DNA of 64,000 nucleotides from NCBI GenBank assembly GCA_000004695.1, contig CM000151.3, positions 6,976,001 through 7,040,000 on the forward strand, read 5' to 3'. The notes beneath the pieces were generated by a model. It saw only the letters and a program-made list of their open reading frames with translations, was not told the DNA's origin and made no database searches. The translations under genes and the position numbers were made by a program. Shown here in pieces: positions 1,542-62,667 of this stretch. This DNA comes from Dictyostelium discoideum. Taxonomy: Eukaryota. Every line of letters begins with the position of its first letter. The stretch's first letter is position 1.

Positions 1542-2818
1542 TTATTTATTTACATTATTTTTATTAAAATTTTCAATTTTCTTTTGTTCTTGTAAAGTTT
1601 TCTTTAATCTTTCTGTACTATTATATTTATTAATGAATGGTTTTAATTCATCTTTGATTGGTACTTCAATAGTTTCACCATGTTTTAAAGAATTTGGTAA
1701 AACATATGGACCATAAGCAACACGAATTAAACGTAAAACTTTAACATTGAAATATTCTAATAATGTTCTAATCTCTCTTTTCTTACCTTCTTGCAATGTT
1801 ATACGTAACCATGTGTTTGAATCGGTTTCACTCTCGACTTGAACACTCACTGGTCTATAGAAAACTTCATTTATAACCATACCTTTTGCAAGACTAAATT
1901 TCATTTCATCTGTAAATTTACCAAATATTCTTACCTTGTAAACACGGAAAAATAAATTCTGTGGTAATGTTAAATATCTTGCCAATTCACCATCATTTGT
2001 AAATAAAATCAATCCCTCTGTATAATAATCTAATCTACCAACTGATATCAAATGATCAATTCCTATAACTTTTCTAATAATTGGTAATAAACAATCTCTA
2101 CCATCTGGATCATATTCTGATGTCAAAACTTGTGGATTCTTAAAATGCATCCAAATTTTTGGTTTATCTACTTTAATCTTTTTTGAAAATTTTAATTAAT
2201 ATTAATATATTAATTAAAAATAAATAGAATAAAATATGAAAAACTTACTGGTTTATCATCAACTGTAATTATATCATGTGGTTTAACTAATATTTCTTCC
2301 ATTTTAATTATTTTACCATTAACTTTAACTCTACCATCTATAATTAATTCTTCAGCTTTTCTTCTTGAAGCAATACCTGCTCTTGCTAAAATCTTTTGAA
2401 TTCTTTCAGTACCGATTTTACCATCTTCTACAAAACCTTCACCTTTTTTAATAAAATCATTTTCTTTAATTTTTTCTGCATCTTTACTCCAAAAACTTAT
2501 TTCTGGATAACCATCTTTTTTCATATCTTTTTCATTTAATTCACCTTGTTTTTTTGCTAATTTTTGTTCTCTAAATTTGTCACGTCTAAGTTTCTTTAAA
2601 TATGACCCAATTTTATCTAATCTTGGTATCTTTTTTGATGTTGAATAATTTAATAATGATGATTGTATTAATGATGATGGTGTTGTTTGATTTATAAATA
2701 AAGATGAAAATGATTGAACATTTTGTTTTAAAATTGTTAATGATAACGATGATGGACCAAGTGGTATATTCGCTTTATATCTTCCTAATATATTAAAACA
2801 ATTATTTAATTTAAACAT
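1542..2818 (-). CDS. Pseudouridine synthase of the RsuA/RluB family (S4 domain plus catalytic VGRLDYYTEGL Asp motif). N-terminal presequence-like region. Two exons: 2249..2818 and 1542..2177.
   Basis: The upstream ORF ends ...ITVDDKP directly before GTAAGT (minus strand). The acceptor is ttttcaaaaaAG at 2179-2178. The downstream exon continues IKVDKPKIWMHFKNP...VGRLDYYTEGLILFTNDGELA in the same phase. The S4-like motif ILARAGIASRRKAEELIIDGRVKVNG sits upstream of the catalytic domain. Confidence 0.8.
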
Positions 2819-8335: not shown

Positions 8336-10396
8336 TTAAAGTTCATCATGGTTTGGCATATCTTCACCAGCGCCATTTGGGGAACCACCAGCAGCACCAT
8401 ATAATTTAGAGAAGATTGGTTGAACGATCTTTTCAAGGATTTTGTATTGTTCATCAAATTCTTCTTTTTCGGCAGAGGAGTTAACATCCAACCAAGAAAG
8501 GGCATCAGAGATAGCGGTTTCAATGGTTTCTTTATCATCTGATTCGATTTTACCACCGATCTTATCTTTATCACCAATGGTGTTTTTAATTTGATAGATG
8601 TAATTTTCCAAGGTATTCTTGGCTTCGACACGTTCTTTGGCAGCTTTATCTTCATCAGCGGCATCGGCAGCTTCTTTGACCATACGATCGATATCGGCTT
8701 GTGAGAGACGTTCCTTATCGTTGGTAATGGTGATGGATTCTTTAGAACCAGAAGCTTTATCTTCAGCTGATACATGTAAAATACCATTGACATCCATTTC
8801 AAAGGTGACTTCAATTTGTGGGACACCTCTTTGAGCTGGTGGGATACCAGAGAGATCAAATTTACCCAAGAGATTGTTATCTTTGGTCATTGAACGTTCA
8901 CCTTCATAGATTTGAATGGAGACACGATCTTGATTATCTTGATAGGTTGAGAAAACTTGTGATTTCTTGGTTGGAACAAATGTACCTCTTGGGATTAAGG
9001 CAGTCATAACTCCACCAACGGTTTCAATACCGAGGGTGAGTGGGGCGATATCTAAGAGTACGAGAGTGTCAGTACCTTCTTCATTGGTGAAAATACCACC
9101 TTGAACGGCAGCACCATAGGCTACAGCCTCATCTGGATGAACACCACGATTTGGTTCTTTACCATTGAAAAAATCTTTTAAGAGTTGTTGAATCTTTGGA
9201 ATACGAGTTGAACCACCAACTAAAACTACTTCGTGGATTTGTGATTTCTTGAATTTGGCATCTTCTAATACCTTCTTTACTGGGTCTAAAGTCTTTTTGA
9301 AGAGATCCATATTGAGTTCTTCAAATTTGGCTCTGGTGAGGGTTTCAATGAGATCTTTACCATCAAAGAAGTTTTCAATCTCTAATTGGGTTTGTGGAGA
9401 GGTTGAGAGAATACGCTTGGCATTTTCAGCAGCTCTTCTTAATTTTTGGAGTGATTTCTTATCTTTTGAGGCATCTTTACCAGTCTTCTTTTGGAAAACG
9501 GTTAAGAAATGTTTCATAACACGTTGATCGAAATCTTCACCACCTAAATGAGTGTCACCATTGGTTGAACGAACTTCAAATACACCATCTTCAATGGATA
9601 AAACTGAAACATCAAATGTACCACCACCTAAATCGTAAACCAAGATATTCTTTTCCTTATCACCAGTGGCATCGAAACCATAGGCTAATGCTGCTGCGGT
9701 TGGTTCATTAATAACACGTAAAACTTCAAGACCTGCAATAACACCTGCATCCTTTGTGGCTGCACGTTGTGCATCATTGAAATAAGCTGGACATGTTACA
9801 ACGGCGTGAGTTACTGTCTTACCAAGGGATGCTTCGGCAATTTCCTTCATTCTACCAAGGATCATTGCTGAGATTTCTTCTGGTGAGTAAGTCTTTTCTT
9901 CACCTTTAACTTTAACTACAACGTATGGTTTATTATTTTTTGAAACAATTTTATATGGTAATAATTTCATATCTCTTTGAACTTCTTCATCATCAAATCT
10001 AAAAAAAAAAAAAATAAATAAAAAAATAATTAGTTATATATTTAAAAAAAAAAAAATAAATAAAAAATAATTAATTAATTACCTTCTACCAATTAAACGT
10101 TTAATATCAAAAATTGTATTTTCTGGGTTGAGAGTTGCTTGATTCTTTGCAGCTTCACCAATGAGACGTTCAGTTTCAGTGAATGCAACATATGATGGAG
10201 TAATACGATTACCTTGATCATTTGGAATAATTTCAACTTTACCTTTCTTGAAGACACCAACACATGAATAGGTAGTACCTAAATCAATACCAATAACACT
10301 TCCATAATCTTTCTTTTCTTCTTCTTTCTTTTCAGCTGCTGCTGCAAAAGAAATTAATAATAATAAACATAATAATGCGTAAATGGATTTATTCAT
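8336..10396 (-). CDS. grp78: ER-lumenal Hsp70 chaperone BiP/GRP78 (signal peptide, C-terminal HDEL). Two exons: 10081..10396 and 8336..9998.
   Basis: Exon 1 encodes [21 protein letters not shown]...[14 protein letters not shown]...LIGR. Donor ag|GTAATT at 10080. Acceptor tttAG at 10000-9999. Exon 2 continues [19 protein letters not shown], carries the full Hsp70 ATPase and substrate-binding domains, and ends [10 protein letters not shown]. Confidence 0.9.
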
Positions 10397-23772: not shown

Positions 23773-26700
23773 CCAATTTGTGTAATATTACTACTATAAT
23801 AAACTTTGATTAATTGGTAAGGTAAAAACTATAGATAGTTTCAAAAAAAAGAAAAATTAAATTTTAAAATAAAAATAAAAAAAATTTTACATTTGTGTAT
23901 TTTTTAAAATTTTTTAATATATACAAAAAACAAAAAACAAAACCCAAAAAAAAAAAAGTTTAATTTGGAAACATAAAACAAAACATTATATCAGTGTGTG
24001 GTGTGGGGTTGTGTGCACAATAAAAAAAAAACAAAATAAAACAAAAAATAAATAAATAAATAAATAAATAAAAAACAAAGAAAAACTTTTTTTGGTGTGC
24101 GCGTGCGAAATGAAATATACTCTGGTCATTAAGAAAAAAAAAGGAAAAAATGAAATAAAATATAATGAAAATTTTTGAAATAAATAATTTATTATTACTT
24201 TTTATTATAAATATAAATAATTATTTGTTTTTATATTTTTCAAAATAAAAATAAAAATAATAAAAAAATAAAATAAAAAAAAAAAGCTGTGAATGGATAA
24301 AAACTGTTTTGGTTTTGGTTTTTTTTTTTTTGGTTTTGGTTTTAGTTTTTTTTTTTTTTTTTTTGATGATAAAAATCCAATTCAAATAAAAAAAAAAACT
24401 TTTGGATGATCGACTATTATCGAAATTCAGATTATATTGAGTGATTATTATTATTAAAAATAAAAAGAAAAAAAAGAAAAAGGCATTCTTTATTATTATT
24501 ATAATTGAAAATAGTATTAAATTATTACTTTTCTATTTTATTTTGTTTTATTTTGTTTTGTTTTTTTTTTTATTATTTTTTTATTTTATTTTTTTAGAGA
24601 ACTGCATCTGTTTTTTTTTTACTTTTTATACATACTAAATAAATAAAATAAATATTGTTGGTGTTTTTAATAAAAAAACTAACCTTATATGTTCATTTAA
24701 AATTTTTTATTATTATTTTTTTTTTTAAGCACAAAAGTGGAAAAAAAAAAAAAAAAAAAAAAAAAACCAAAAAAATAAAATAATTAAAAAAAAATAATAA
24801 AATAAATAAATAAAAAATAAAAACAAATAAAATAAAAAATGTATGTAAAAAAAAAGTGTCAAAAAAAATTTAACCACTGTTTAAACGATAAGAAAAAAGA
24901 AATCATATACACACACAAAGTAGTTATATAAAATTGGATTATTATAAAAACATTAAAATATTAAAATTTATCATTTATTATATTTTTATTTTGGACTCGA
25001 CATATTCCAAAAAAATTTTAATAGTGGAATTCAAGACAATATTATTTAATTATTTAAACCTACTAATTATAATAAAAAAATTGAAATAATGATTATATGT
25101 GTATGTATCACTGATACTGTTTAAAACATTTAACAAATTAAATTGGTAATTATTCTCCTATATATATACACTAATATTATTATTATTATTTTTTTTTTTT
25201 TTTGCGTGTTGTTTTACATTTAATTAAAAAAAAAAAAAAGAAAAAAAAAAAAAAAAAAAATAATAAAATAAATAAATAAATAAATAAAACAAATAAAATA
25301 AAAAATAGAAAAAAATAAATTAAATAATAATTCCAAGATGTATATTTTTTTTTTTTTATTTTTTTATTTATTTATTTATTTAAAAAATAAAGGGGAAAAA
25401 AAAAAAAAAAAAAATATAGGAAGGTGCACTGTTTAAATAATATAACCAAAAAAATAGATTATTTTTTTTTTTAAAAAAAAAAAATAAAATAAAATTAACT
25501 TAACTAAACAAGTAGATATTTAAAAAAGGAAAAATAAAAAAAAAAAATAAAAAATAAAAAATAATATCAACAAACTTTTTAAATTCAACAATAATTGACG
25601 AATAAAAACTATTGAAATTGAAGTAATCGAATTACCTTTTTAGTTGTTGCTTATGTATTTGTGTTTATAGTTTTATAAAACTATCCTCTTGTTGATATTT
25701 GTTAATTTATAATATATTAATGTGTATATAATAAATCTACAATTGATTTTTTTTTTTTTTCTTTTTTCTTTTTTTTTTTTGTTTTTTGTTTTGCTTTTTT
25801 TTTGTTTTTTTTTATTTATTTATTTATTTATTTAATGTTTATTTGGTGGAATTGATTTTCTTTGATTTAATAATTTTCTTTGACTAAATAAAATTATATT
25901 ATTACTATGGTTTTTATTATTTATGAGCTTATTGATCATTATACTCTATGATAAGGGGATTATGAAATGGAAAATTTTATGTGATTTTTATTTTGGAAAT
26001 TCTGGTAAAAAAAAAAAAAAAAATTTAAAAAAAAATATATAAAACTATATTCTTTTTTTTTTATGTTATTTATTTATTTGTTTTTTTTTTTTTTTTTTTT
26101 TTTATTAAATATATATAAAATAATATGTTATTTGTGAAAAAACAAATATATATAAAAAAAAAAGAAAGAGAAAAAAAAATTTTGAAGTGAGGAAAAGTAA
26201 AACTTTTTTTAAAAAAAAAAAAATAAAAAAAATAAAATTGTGAAAAAGCCGAAAGTTTTTTTTTATTTTTTTTTTTGGCTTGCTCGAAGAAATCAAAAAA
26301 AAATTTTTAGATATTTAAATTTATAAAGGGTCATTTTTTTTATTTTTTATTTTTTTATTTTTCATTTTTTTTATTTTTTTTTTTTTTGAGGATCGATTGG
26401 TTGCTCAATTATAATAATAGGAACATTGTAATAATAGTTATAAAAATAACCATTAACACCTGGTTAATAATAAAACAAAAAAATTAAATTCTCTTTTTTA
26501 TTTTTTTATTATTTTTTTTTTTTTTTTGGGGTTTTTTTTTTTTTTTTTTTAAAAATTATTAAATCATCAAAACCCAAATTTATGTTAGTCTTTTGGAATT
26601 AATTTTATTTTTTTATTCAAATAAAACTATTTTTTTTTTTTCCAAAGAATTTGGTTAACTATTTCTGAAAAAAAAAAAAAAAATTTTTTATTCATTTTTT

Positions 26701-26802
26701 TTATATCTACCTGGTCCATAAAAAAAAAAAAAAAAAAAAAAAACCAAATATATAAAGAAGTTTGTATTTGATAAAGTCAAAAAGTCTAAAATACAAACTT
26801 AC

Positions 26803-26840
<38 letters not shown>

Positions 26841-26972
26841 AAATCAAAAATAAAAAATAAAAAAAAAAAAAAAAAAAAAAAGATTGAATCCAGGAGGGCT
26901 GGTAAAAAATCAAAAACCAGTCTTTTTTATTTTTATTTTTAAACTTTTTTTTATTTTGGGCATCAACAACTT

Positions 26973-27576
26973 TTATCCGTAACAACGAATTTTATCATTG
27001 CAACCTTTGGAAGCACATTGCCCACCTTTTTCTGTTATTTTAATAATAATTAATAAAAAAAAAAAAAAAAAAAATTAGTTTTTTAAGTTGTTTGGATTCA
27101 TTATTTTTATTATTATTTATTTATTTATTTATTTAATAATTACCTAAATATTGTTGATGTTCAGTTTCAGCAGGATAAAATACACCAGCTGGTAAAATTT
27201 CAGTTGAGATTGGATCTTTATATTTTAATTGTTCTTTTTCTTTACTTGCAATTGCTTCATTCTTTTGTTCTTCATTATGATAATAAATACCAGATCTATA
27301 TTGTGTACCTACATCATTACCTTGACGATTTAATGTTGTTGGATCATGTTTAGACCAAAATAAACCTAACAATTGATTGTATGTGACTTTTTCAGGATCA
27401 TATTCCAATTCAACTGCTTCAGCACATCCAGTTTTACCACTACAAACTTGTCTATAGGTTGGATTCTCTACAGTACCGTTAGTATAACCAACTCTTGTTT
27501 TTGTAACACCTGCTACTCTTTGAAATAATAATTCAACAGACCAAAAACATCCTGCTGCAAATGTTGCTTTTGTCAT
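26973..27576 (-). CDS. msrA: Peptide methionine sulfoxide reductase MsrA. Two exons: 27144..27576 and 26973..27031.
   Basis: Exon 1 carries [32 protein letters not shown] and AETEHQQYL. The listed ORF ends where GTAATT begins (TTA G|GTAATT at 27143-27142). An AT-rich 110-nt intron follows. Acceptor aacAG at 27033-27032. Exon 2 adds [19 protein letters not shown], restoring the cysteine-containing C-terminal tail typical of MsrA. Confidence 0.7.
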
Positions 27577-28295: not shown

Positions 28296-28366
28296 GGGAG
28301 ATTAGTTAAGTGGTATAATGCTACCTTTGGGTGGTAGCGTCCTGAGTTCGATTCTCGGATCTCCCC
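28296..28366 (+). tRNA. tRNA-Pro, anticodon UGG.
   Basis: Cloverleaf folded by hand. Acceptor GGGAGAT/ATCTCCC. D-arm GTTA-AGTGGTA-TAAT. Anticodon stem CTACC/GGTAG with loop TTTGGGT (anticodon TGG). T-arm CTGAG-TTCGATT-CTCGG. Discriminator C. No encoded CCA. Confidence 0.85.
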
Positions 28367-59595: not shown

Positions 59596-60336
59596 TTAGT
59601 TGATTTTTGGAATTTTGTTAAGTAATGATTTTAATTTTGGTTGAGATAAAATAGGAGAATTTAAACAAATACTTGGTAATTGGAAGTTTGATGAATCAGC
59701 AGATGGTTCGTAATAGTAAAAGTTGGTCAATGAATTACCACTTGGTGAACCATTAGCATTTTGAGCAGATGCAGAGATCAATGAACAATCGGATTTATCA
59801 ACAAAGAGATATTGATTTGTACTGTTACCTAAAATGCTTGGATACATAAACAAATCACATTCGACTGAACCTATTTCAGCATCACTAACATACTTTAAAT
59901 TTTCAAAGACTGGGATAGAGTATGTCAATGTCTCTAAGAAACAATATTCATTTCCATTTAATTCAATATTAACATATTGAGTATTATTTCCATTGAAACC
60001 CCAAAGTTTACCTTTAGTAACAGAGTTTTCAGTATCCATTTCAAAATCAACATACAATTGTCCACCAACAAAATCAATATCAACTGTACCAGATTCCATA
60101 TAAGAAGTTTGAGTAATGTCTCCGTTTGAAGTTGGGGTATTTGCATTAAAAGCTATTTGGACAAATGAAGTAGAATAACCAGTTGGAAAGTTAGAACTTG
60201 ATGTAAAACATTGTTGTTGGCCAACTTTATTTTCAAGTTTCGAAAAATCAACATTATTATTTACACCCAATTTAAGGGATTCACCACAATTGAATGCAAT
60301 TGTAAATAATAAAATTAAAGATAATAATAATTTCAT
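59596..60336 (-). CDS. Secreted protein of unknown function (signal peptide MKLLLSLILLFTIAFNCG; 246 aa), copy 1.
   Basis: Complete ORF. Asn/Ser/Thr-rich with several NxS/T sites and 6 Cys. Confidence 0.65.
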   Translation of the reverse strand: MKLLLSLILLFTIAFNCGESLKLGVNNNVDFSKLENKVGQQQCFTSSSNFPTGYSTSFVQIAFNANTPTSNGDITQTSYMESGTVDIDFVGGQLYVDFEMDTENSVTKGKLWGFNGNNTQYVNIELNGNEYCFLETLTYSIPVFENLKYVSDAEIGSVECDLFMYPSILGNSTNQYLFVDKSDCSLISASAQNANGSPSGNSLTNFYYYEPSADSSNFQLPSICLNSPILSQPKLKSLLNKIPKIN

Positions 60337-61926: not shown

Positions 61927-62667
61927 TTAGTTGATTTTTGGAATTTTGTTAAGTAATGATTTTAATTTTGGTTGAGATAAAATAGGAGAATTTAAACAAA
62001 TACTTGGTAATTGGAAGTTTGATGAATCAGCAGATGGTTGGTAATAGTAAAAGTTGGTTAATGAATTACCACTTGGTGAACCATTAGCATTTTGAGCAGA
62101 TGCAGAGATCAATGAACAATCGGATTTATCAACAAAGAGATATTGATTTGTACTGTTACCCAAAATGCTTGGATACATAAACAAATCACATTCGACTGAA
62201 CCTATTTCAGCATCACTAACATACTTTAAATTTTCAAAGACTGGGATAGAGTATGTCAATGTCTCTAAGAAACAATATTCATTTCCGTTTAATTCAATAT
62301 TAACATATTGAGTATTATTTCCATTGAAACCCCAAAGTTTACCTTTAGTTACAGAGTTTTCAGTATCCATTTCAAAATCAACATACAATTGTCCACCAAC
62401 AAAATCAATATCAACTGTACCAGATTCCATATAAGAAGTTTGAGTAATGTCTCCGTTTGAAGTTGGGGTATTTGCATTAAAAGCTATTTGAACAAATGAA
62501 GTTGAATAACCATTTGGAAAGTTAGAACTTGATGTAAAACATTGTTGTTGATTAACTTTATTTTCAAGTTTAGAATAATCAACATTATTATTTACACCCA
62601 ATTTAAGGGATTCACCACAATTGAATGCAATTGTAAATAATAAAATTAAAGATAATAATAATTTCAT
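61927..62667 (-). CDS. Secreted protein, copy 2. It differs from copy 1 by 4 aa (F31Y, G38N, T52N, E210Q). Flanks are conserved 2331 bp apart.
   Basis: Complete ORF. 5' and 3' flanks are nearly identical to the 59596 copy (for example gaatcttttttgattgaaaaatta upstream and cattttaatgattttttaatttttttaattatttgttttggaaatatttttttt downstream). Confidence 0.65.
   Translation of the reverse strand: MKLLLSLILLFTIAFNCGESLKLGVNNNVDYSKLENKVNQQQCFTSSSNFPNGYSTSFVQIAFNANTPTSNGDITQTSYMESGTVDIDFVGGQLYVDFEMDTENSVTKGKLWGFNGNNTQYVNIELNGNEYCFLETLTYSIPVFENLKYVSDAEIGSVECDLFMYPSILGNSTNQYLFVDKSDCSLISASAQNANGSPSGNSLTNFYYYQPSADSSNFQLPSICLNSPILSQPKLKSLLNKIPKIN

Follow-up and report, generated by a model that had tools for sequence, protein, structure and literature searches.

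The catalytic cysteine of MsrA forms a sulfenic acid that is resolved by C-terminal recycling cysteines, and thioredoxin then reduces the disulfide (PMC6316033). The N-terminal GCFW catalytic motif was defined in bioRxiv 10.1101/2021.02.26.433065, and a Tyr/Glu/Tyr set provides the substrate-binding residues (PMC6316033). A tail of the form Q[C/S/K]...I[R/L]CYG marks the poplar-like MsrA subtype, which also occurs in a few early-diverging fungi (bioRxiv 10.1101/2021.02.26.433065). The 163-aa MsrA of Acanthamoeba is reduced by Trx-1 (PMC8038987); it is likened to the protein discussed here by its published description.

Among solved structures, the best match to the Dictyostelium protein is the plastidial MsrA of poplar (Populus trichocarpa; PDB 2J89), an enzyme of the 3-Cys plant type. 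Residues 4-163 of the spliced Dictyostelium protein align with 2j89_A up to the last residue of both (6e-61). The alignment runs from the GCFW site through the terminal KGC-N-D-x-I-R-C-Y-G, and the poplar tail KGCNDPIRCYG pairs with the residues ending at 163. Cys10, Cys155 and Cys161 align with 2j89 residues 103, 253 and 259. In both proteins the tail cysteines are six residues apart and equally spaced from the catalytic cysteine, and the spacing is the same as between Cys46, Cys196 and Cys202 in poplar numbering. Rouhier et al. reportedly found in 2007 (J Biol Chem) that Cys202 of the CYG signature attacks first in poplar MsrA and Cys196 second. The two proteins differ at the N-terminus and in the tail. 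Only poplar MsrA carries a transit peptide and, behind KGG, five inserted residues (RFGFM); the Dictyostelium protein has no N-terminal extension. A Ser in poplar replaces the third Dictyostelium tail cysteine (Cys150, in QC). Of the two, only the poplar enzyme is known biochemically.

E. coli and bovine MsrA (1FF3, 1FVA) share with the Dictyostelium protein the fold, the GCFW cysteine, the Tyr/Glu/Tyr set and the principle of two C-terminal recycling cysteines that thioredoxin reduces. Their tails, however, are longer and Gly-rich (HKNPYGYCG), and past about residue 151-152 they no longer align with that of Dictyostelium. In these enzymes the first C-terminal cysteine, not the last, is said to be the first recycling cysteine, again after the 2007 work of Rouhier. 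Other dictyostelid and amoebozoan MsrAs, including that of Balamuthia, are 71-91% identical to the Dictyostelium discoideum protein, have 163-168 aa and carry the tail EKGGQC..KGC.DKIRCYG. The genes of D. purpureum, P. violaceum, Heterostelium album, Acytostelium subglobosum and Tieghemostelium lacteum differ from that of D. discoideum in having no intron at codon 145.

The window analyzed here is a stretch of 64,000 nucleotides of D. discoideum DNA with 19.8% G+C overall, which is typical for Dictyostelium. The msrA gene (DDB_G0276579) is read from the minus strand, and its 147-codon ORF (27576..27133) ends with EHQQYLGNY*. The product of this ORF is identical to that of D. discoideum AX4 DDB_G0276579 (EAL69243.1, XP_643161.1, UniRef100_Q551H3). 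Compared with the single exon of the AX4 reference, we propose that D. discoideum msrA has two exons and encodes a 163-aa protein, and we put the probability of this model at about 0.93. The features of the proposed gene are listed in Table 1.

Table 1. Features of the proposed two-exon msrA gene in the window, and msrA gene structures in other dictyostelid loci.
Feature	Coordinates	Strand	Remarks
msrA exon 1	27144..27576	-	433 nt; ATG 27576..27574; ends CAA TAT TTA G, the last G being the first base of codon 145
Catalytic Cys10 codon TGT	27549..27547	-	inside GCFW, exon 1
Predicted 5' splice site GTAATT	27138..27143	-	preceded by exonic AG; GTAATTAT identical in 6 of 6 intron-bearing loci
Predicted msrA intron	27032..27143	-	112 nt, phase 1, GT-AG, 92% A+T (8% GC)
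In-frame TAA in the intron	27133..27135	-	stop of the 147-aa AX4 model, read-through end GNY*
Candidate branch point ACTAAT	27074..27079	-	branch A 27075, 43 nt from the acceptor
T20 tract	27055..27074	-	23-42 nt upstream of the acceptor, directly after ACTAAT
Predicted 3' splice site AACAG	27032..27036	-	ACAG kept in five loci; ATAG in D. dimigraforme
Predicted msrA terminal exon 2	26973..27031	-	59 nt: 2 nt, 18 codons and TAA (26975..26973)
Tail Cys150 codon	27017..27015	-	exon 2
Tail Cys155 codon	27002..27000	-	exon 2
Tail Cys161 codon	26984..26982	-	exon 2
First AATAAA after the exon 2 stop	26950..26955	-	motif position only; possible polyadenylation signal
H. album, P. violaceum and A. 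subglobosum msrA			whole protein in one uninterrupted ORF
D. purpureum msrA			introns at codons 47 and 86; contiguous at codon 145
T. lacteum msrA			contiguous at codon 145; different intron at codon 160
D. cf. discoideum and two D. discoideum strains, msrA			intron at codon 145, phase 1, donor GTAATTAT; 129, 129 and 126 nt
D. dimigraforme msrA			intron at codon 145, phase 1, donor GTAATTAT; 235 nt
D. citrinum msrA			intron at codon 145, phase 1, donor GTAATTAT; 93 nt

The spliced coding sequence has 492 nt, is in frame and gives a protein of 163 aa with cysteines at positions 10, 45, 51, 150, 155 and 161. Relative to this protein, the AX4 reference MsrA ends 16 residues short. The last cysteine of the unspliced 147-aa product is residue 51, whereas the spliced form has three C-terminal cysteines. 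The G+C content is 32% in exon 1, 8% in the intron and 37% in exon 2.

A sequence-only reading of this locus had named the ORF end EHQQYLGNY*, a GTAATT donor, an AACAG acceptor and a second exon, and all of them are present. It had also stated that the unspliced product would lack any C-terminal cysteine and the spliced product would have three, which holds (none after residue 51; 150, 155 and 161 in the tail). Its count of 19 residues for the terminal exon is right when the split codon is included. Several details are revised here. The intron has 112 nt and not 110. Of the junction given as 27143/27031, position 27031 stands, while 27143 is the first intron base and the exon boundary is 27144. 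The stop codon had been described as overlapping the donor; it occupies intron positions 9-11 (TAA 27135..27133), just past GTAATT, with no overlap. Exon 2 had been called the only non-AT-rich patch of the 3' region, but a second patch lies at about 26880..26920 (GC 0.375). We considered this second patch as a further exon and rejected it: it is past the conserved TAA/TGA stop and has no MsrA homology, and the orthologues end with CYG.

In a set of 17,300 D. discoideum introns, the median length was 103 nt and the A+T content 89%, the commonest branch hexamer was ACTAAT, and a single poly-T peak was located 15-40 nt from the acceptor (PMC2483917). On all four counts the msrA intron conforms to these norms. 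Its GT-AG boundaries (GTAATT...AACAG) restore both frame and homology, and the junction is gap-free against 18 homologues. The candidate branch hexamer ACTAAT is kept in the three other D. discoideum-type loci and reads ACTGAT in D. citrinum; by itself it is weak evidence, as 12% of shuffles contain ACTAAT. The D. dimigraforme intron has neither a wCTRAY motif nor a long T run. GTAAGT is the consensus for Dictyostelium 5' splice sites, from which the msrA donor GTAATT differs at +5 (no +5 G). The donor GTAATTAT is unchanged in all six loci, although the intron length shifts widely. Past the exon 2 stop, AATAAA motifs are found at 18, 36 and 42 nt, and the first of them is a possible msrA polyadenylation signal.

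The tail encoded by exon 2 was searched for with a profile. We built a tail HMM of 19 positions from 104 homologues, with all D. discoideum-complex sequences left out, and ran it against 3,678 stop-to-stop fragments (at least 10 aa) from the six frames of the 64-kb window. It matched one fragment only, 26976..27074 (-), with 49.2 bits and E = 7e-14 over the whole profile. The runner-up in the window had E = 0.22. Because the E value to this independent tail profile is 7e-14 and the match is the sole one in the window, a chance-ORF origin of exon 2 is excluded. The plant/poplar-type signature was defined as an end of ...KxC..xI[R/L]CYG with two recycling cysteines six residues apart. KGC155NDKIRC161YG is the extreme C-terminus in the spliced model only, and the unspliced model lacks the signature.

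The spliced protein matches PMSR (Pfam PF01625) with 4.3e-63 and 212.6 bits (cut-off 23.7) over profile positions 1-147 of 153. The GCFW residues G9, C10, F11 and W12 are invariant in 19 aligned homologues. An ungapped alignment to 1ff3_A (query 3 = chain 44) pairs Y41, E53 and Y93 with E. coli Tyr82, Glu94 and Tyr134, and these three residues are also invariant in the 19-sequence alignment. By homology, the spliced msrA product would be a peptide-methionine (S)-S-oxide reductase of the plant/poplar subtype. In such an enzyme, Cys10 of GCFW would attack the sulfoxide to give a sulfenic acid. A tail cysteine would resolve the sulfenic acid, by poplar analogy Cys161 of the terminal CYG first. 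A disulfide exchange to Cys155 would follow, and thioredoxin would reduce the resulting disulfide. The roles proposed for single cysteines, the order in which Cys161 and Cys155 act and any part played by Cys150 are carried over from poplar, and by the same analogy we infer thioredoxin-dependent recycling through the D. discoideum tail disulfide.

One residue in this alignment is lineage-specific. At codon 51 (27426..27424), the widely conserved His of G-x-T-G-H-A-E-A-V is Cys (GKTGCAEAV). Cys at this position is confined to the clade with the codon-145 intron (D. discoideum, D. dimigraforme and D. citrinum); Phe is found in T. lacteum and His in the rest of the aligned homologues.

A database search found full-length MsrA orthologues (163-168 aa, about 100% coverage) from seven other dictyostelids: D. 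dimigraforme, D. citrinum, P. violaceum, D. purpureum, H. album, A. subglobosum and T. lacteum. The same search gave MsrA homologues from further Amoebozoa, from oomycetes and plants, and from fungi of the zoopagomycete and kickxellomycete groups. The fungal matches agree with the poplar-like tail reported in early-diverging fungi (bioRxiv 10.1101/2021.02.26.433065). In the 19-sequence alignment, the tail EKGGQC..KGC.DKIRCYG is present in every sequence but the AX4 model, with no gap at the junction.

These comparisons bear on what the sequence-only reading had said about the tail. Its proposal that splicing restores a conserved Cys tail agrees with the presence of that tail in all other dictyostelid MsrAs and in amoebozoan, oomycete, zoopagomycete and plant homologues. 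The two alignments it had suggested point the same way. With the MsrA profiles, the end of the PMSR match moves from profile position 145 (unspliced) to 147 (spliced), in addition to the tail HMM match; with other dictyostelids, the tail is found in all and five outgroups encode the junction contiguously. Its argument from resolving cysteines is in line with PMC6316033, but the tail is of the plant/poplar type and not of the E. coli/mammalian type it had invoked. The word "cryptic" was too strong for an exon that is merely absent from the AX4 reference model.

The gene structures at msrA were rebuilt from the genomic locus of each species (Table 1). The codon-145 phase-1 intron is common to the window and to five further loci from four taxa, in which it has 93-235 nt. 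Indels alter the length of the intron but leave exon 2 at 59 nt and in the same frame. Compared with the window, exon 2 of the D. discoideum-type loci has 1-3 nt changes, all synonymous, and 0 indels; the intron of the same loci has 12-16 mismatches and 14-27 gapped columns. The three cysteines and DKIRCYG of exon 2 are invariant in 9/9 dictyostelid sequences. Such constraint beside a drifting intron is the signature that a translated exon flanked by a real intron would leave, and we infer that the codon-145 intron is spliced in vivo. In D. purpureum, the contiguous sequence TATTTAG-AAAAAGGTGG equals the spliced junction predicted for D. discoideum.

The codon-145 intron occurs only in D. discoideum, D. 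citrinum and D. dimigraforme and is absent from five outgroups across the dictyostelid tree. The most parsimonious history is that the intron was gained once this group had diverged from D. purpureum; parallel losses are less likely. The two D. purpureum introns (2140-2214 and 2332-2402 of its locus, codons 47 and 86) are both phase 1 and are absent from D. discoideum, so that these two group-4 species have 0 shared msrA intron positions. The lack of a common position suggests rapid intron turnover in this small gene. In T. lacteum, a tail intron of 62 nt (980-1041 of its locus) interrupts codon 160 in phase 2 with GTAAGT...CATAG. The terminal exon behind it has 28 nt and encodes (K)IACYGLNK, an independent 3' micro-exon in the same gene family. 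The T. lacteum tail has also lost the first Cys (QS), and Ala replaces Arg before CYG.

We weighed the two-exon model against other explanations of the locus. A single-exon gene would have the 147-aa GNY* protein as its only product, with the downstream 19-codon frame as a chance ORF or a decaying relic. The existing annotation calls this ORF (XP_643161.1 / Q551H3 and GCA_054883475.1), the donor is non-consensus at +5, and 1-Cys MsrAs without a resolving cysteine are known elsewhere (bioRxiv 10.1101/2021.02.26.433065). We nevertheless consider a single-exon gene very improbable. The tail profile excludes a chance ORF, and a relic is excluded by a frame, three cysteines, a DKIRCYG motif and two splice sites that are kept in four taxa around an intron of 93-235 nt, and by strain differences in exon 2 that are all synonymous. 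The tail is also present in all orthologues. There is next to no probability that the AT-rich "intron" was introduced into a contiguous gene by an error of assembly or sequencing: assemblies are prone to errors in homopolymers and in low-complexity AT-rich repeats, but the same codon is interrupted in six independently assembled genomes from four taxa, with varied lengths and GT-AG ends.

Two deliberate isoforms are improbable too, and nothing speaks for them specifically. Here the spliced 163-aa form would be recyclable by thioredoxin, and regulated intron retention or intronic polyadenylation would give a tail-less 147-aa form with different redox behaviour. The intron contains five AATAAA copies, but such strings, like stops, are expected in an intron of 92% A+T. 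The in-frame stop 9 nt into the intron gives a GNY* read-through end in 5/6 intron-bearing loci, and the sub-consensus donor GTAATTAT is conserved; however, GNY is what the donor sequence itself encodes, and its conservation can be explained without an isoform. D. dimigraforme has no stop at the TAA site, and read-through there leads to a different 13-residue tail. The five outgroups without the codon-145 intron cannot make the 147-aa isoform. It is likewise quite unlikely that the recently gained intron, placed exactly between catalytic core and redox tail, acts through its sub-consensus donor, early in-frame stop and AATAAA motifs as a switch in which splicing efficiency sets the redox mode. 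If it did, the tail-less 147-aa MsrA would not be recyclable by thioredoxin through the usual disulfide relay. Under the two-exon model, the 147-aa form ending GNY* is an annotation artefact. The original gene prediction plausibly stopped early because the donor deviates at +5, a TAA follows nine bases into the intron and the exon is small.

Exon 2 was also considered as part of the next gene, and this was rejected. The next same-strand gene, which matches the neighbour annotated in D. dimigraforme, begins roughly 1 kb further downstream, at 25939. Because it starts only there, exon 2 is assigned to msrA as its own terminal exon.

GenBank already has an independently modelled entry, KAM9981676.1 (D. 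cf. discoideum), with exactly this 163-aa sequence, and KAM9964627.1 and KAM9966136.1 (D. discoideum) are one-residue variants of it (L to S). The 147-aa form is still found in EAL69243.1, XP_643161.1 and UniProt Q551H3 (AX4) and in KAM9946138.1. The last of these comes from GCA_054883475.1, whose sequence (JBTAPE010000033.1, 701-1304) is identical to window positions 27576..26973 over 604 nt including the intron and exon 2. Its msrA is annotated as the 147-aa ORF, but the 163-aa model is used in sister assemblies of the same accession series; the msrA annotation is inconsistent within one assembly project. RNA-derived copies of the 163-aa form were not found in the protein collection, in which the matches were NCBI genome annotations only. 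No mention of DDB_G0276579 was found in the literature searched, and none of the literature searched on Dictyostelium and msrA deals with this gene.

The finding is an ordinary gene-model correction that is already known, and no new biological entity is involved. Its practical value lies in curation, as the AX4 reference MsrA is without the residues that, by homology, thioredoxin-dependent turnover needs. The annotated ORF, if expressed, modelled or knocked in, would probably give a crippled enzyme. Orthology and cysteine-proteome analyses on the reference set would misclassify this MsrA as 1-Cys. The case also illustrates a general weakness of Dictyostelium models, in which short terminal exons behind AT-rich, early-stop introns are easily lost. 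For work on intron gain, the lineage-restricted intron adds only a small data point; the biology of the enzyme, including tail and mechanism, is well known.

Other features were noted around msrA. A tRNA-Pro(UGG) lies at 28296..28366 (+), about 720 nt upstream of the msrA ATG and on the opposite strand (ARAGORN; Rfam 57 bits). It is the only structured RNA that Rfam recognized in the whole window. Retroelements of the TRE and DGLT-A types use tRNA genes as landing sites in Dictyostelium. Downstream of msrA, at 26700..26925 (-), small islands amid poly-T show conservation across D. discoideum strains and, in part, in D. citrinum. One of them, GACTGG...TTACCAGCCCTCC at about 26885-26925 (-), has a CTGG/CCAG stem. 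Another region, 26800..26757 (-), contains a perfect 12-bp inverted repeat, AAGTTTGTATTT...AAATACAAACTT, with GACTTT repeated in the loop, and a further island, ATGGACCAGGTAGAT, is found at about 26719..26705 (-). The islands at 26700..26925 have no Rfam match; they may belong to the 3'UTR or to the promoter of the next gene, or represent a small RNA.

Elsewhere in the window, two 246-aa ORFs at 59596..60336 (-) and 61927..62667 (-), 2,331 nt apart, each match the amoebozoan ependymin domain PF25544 with about 1e-63, and the pair is a tandem gene duplication. The Hsp70 ORF at 8336..9970 (-) begins at Pfam profile position 82 with its first residue. Because of this start, the N-terminal ~80 residues must lie in a predicted upstream exon, and the six-frame ORF understates the gene. 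Two adjacent 202-aa ORFs, 1542..2150 (-) and 2210..2818 (-), are separated by 59 nt; an S4 domain is found in the upstream ORF, and the downstream ORF has the C-terminal two-thirds of PseudoU_synth_2. Together they probably form a single gene for an RluA-type pseudouridine synthase, interrupted by a short intron.
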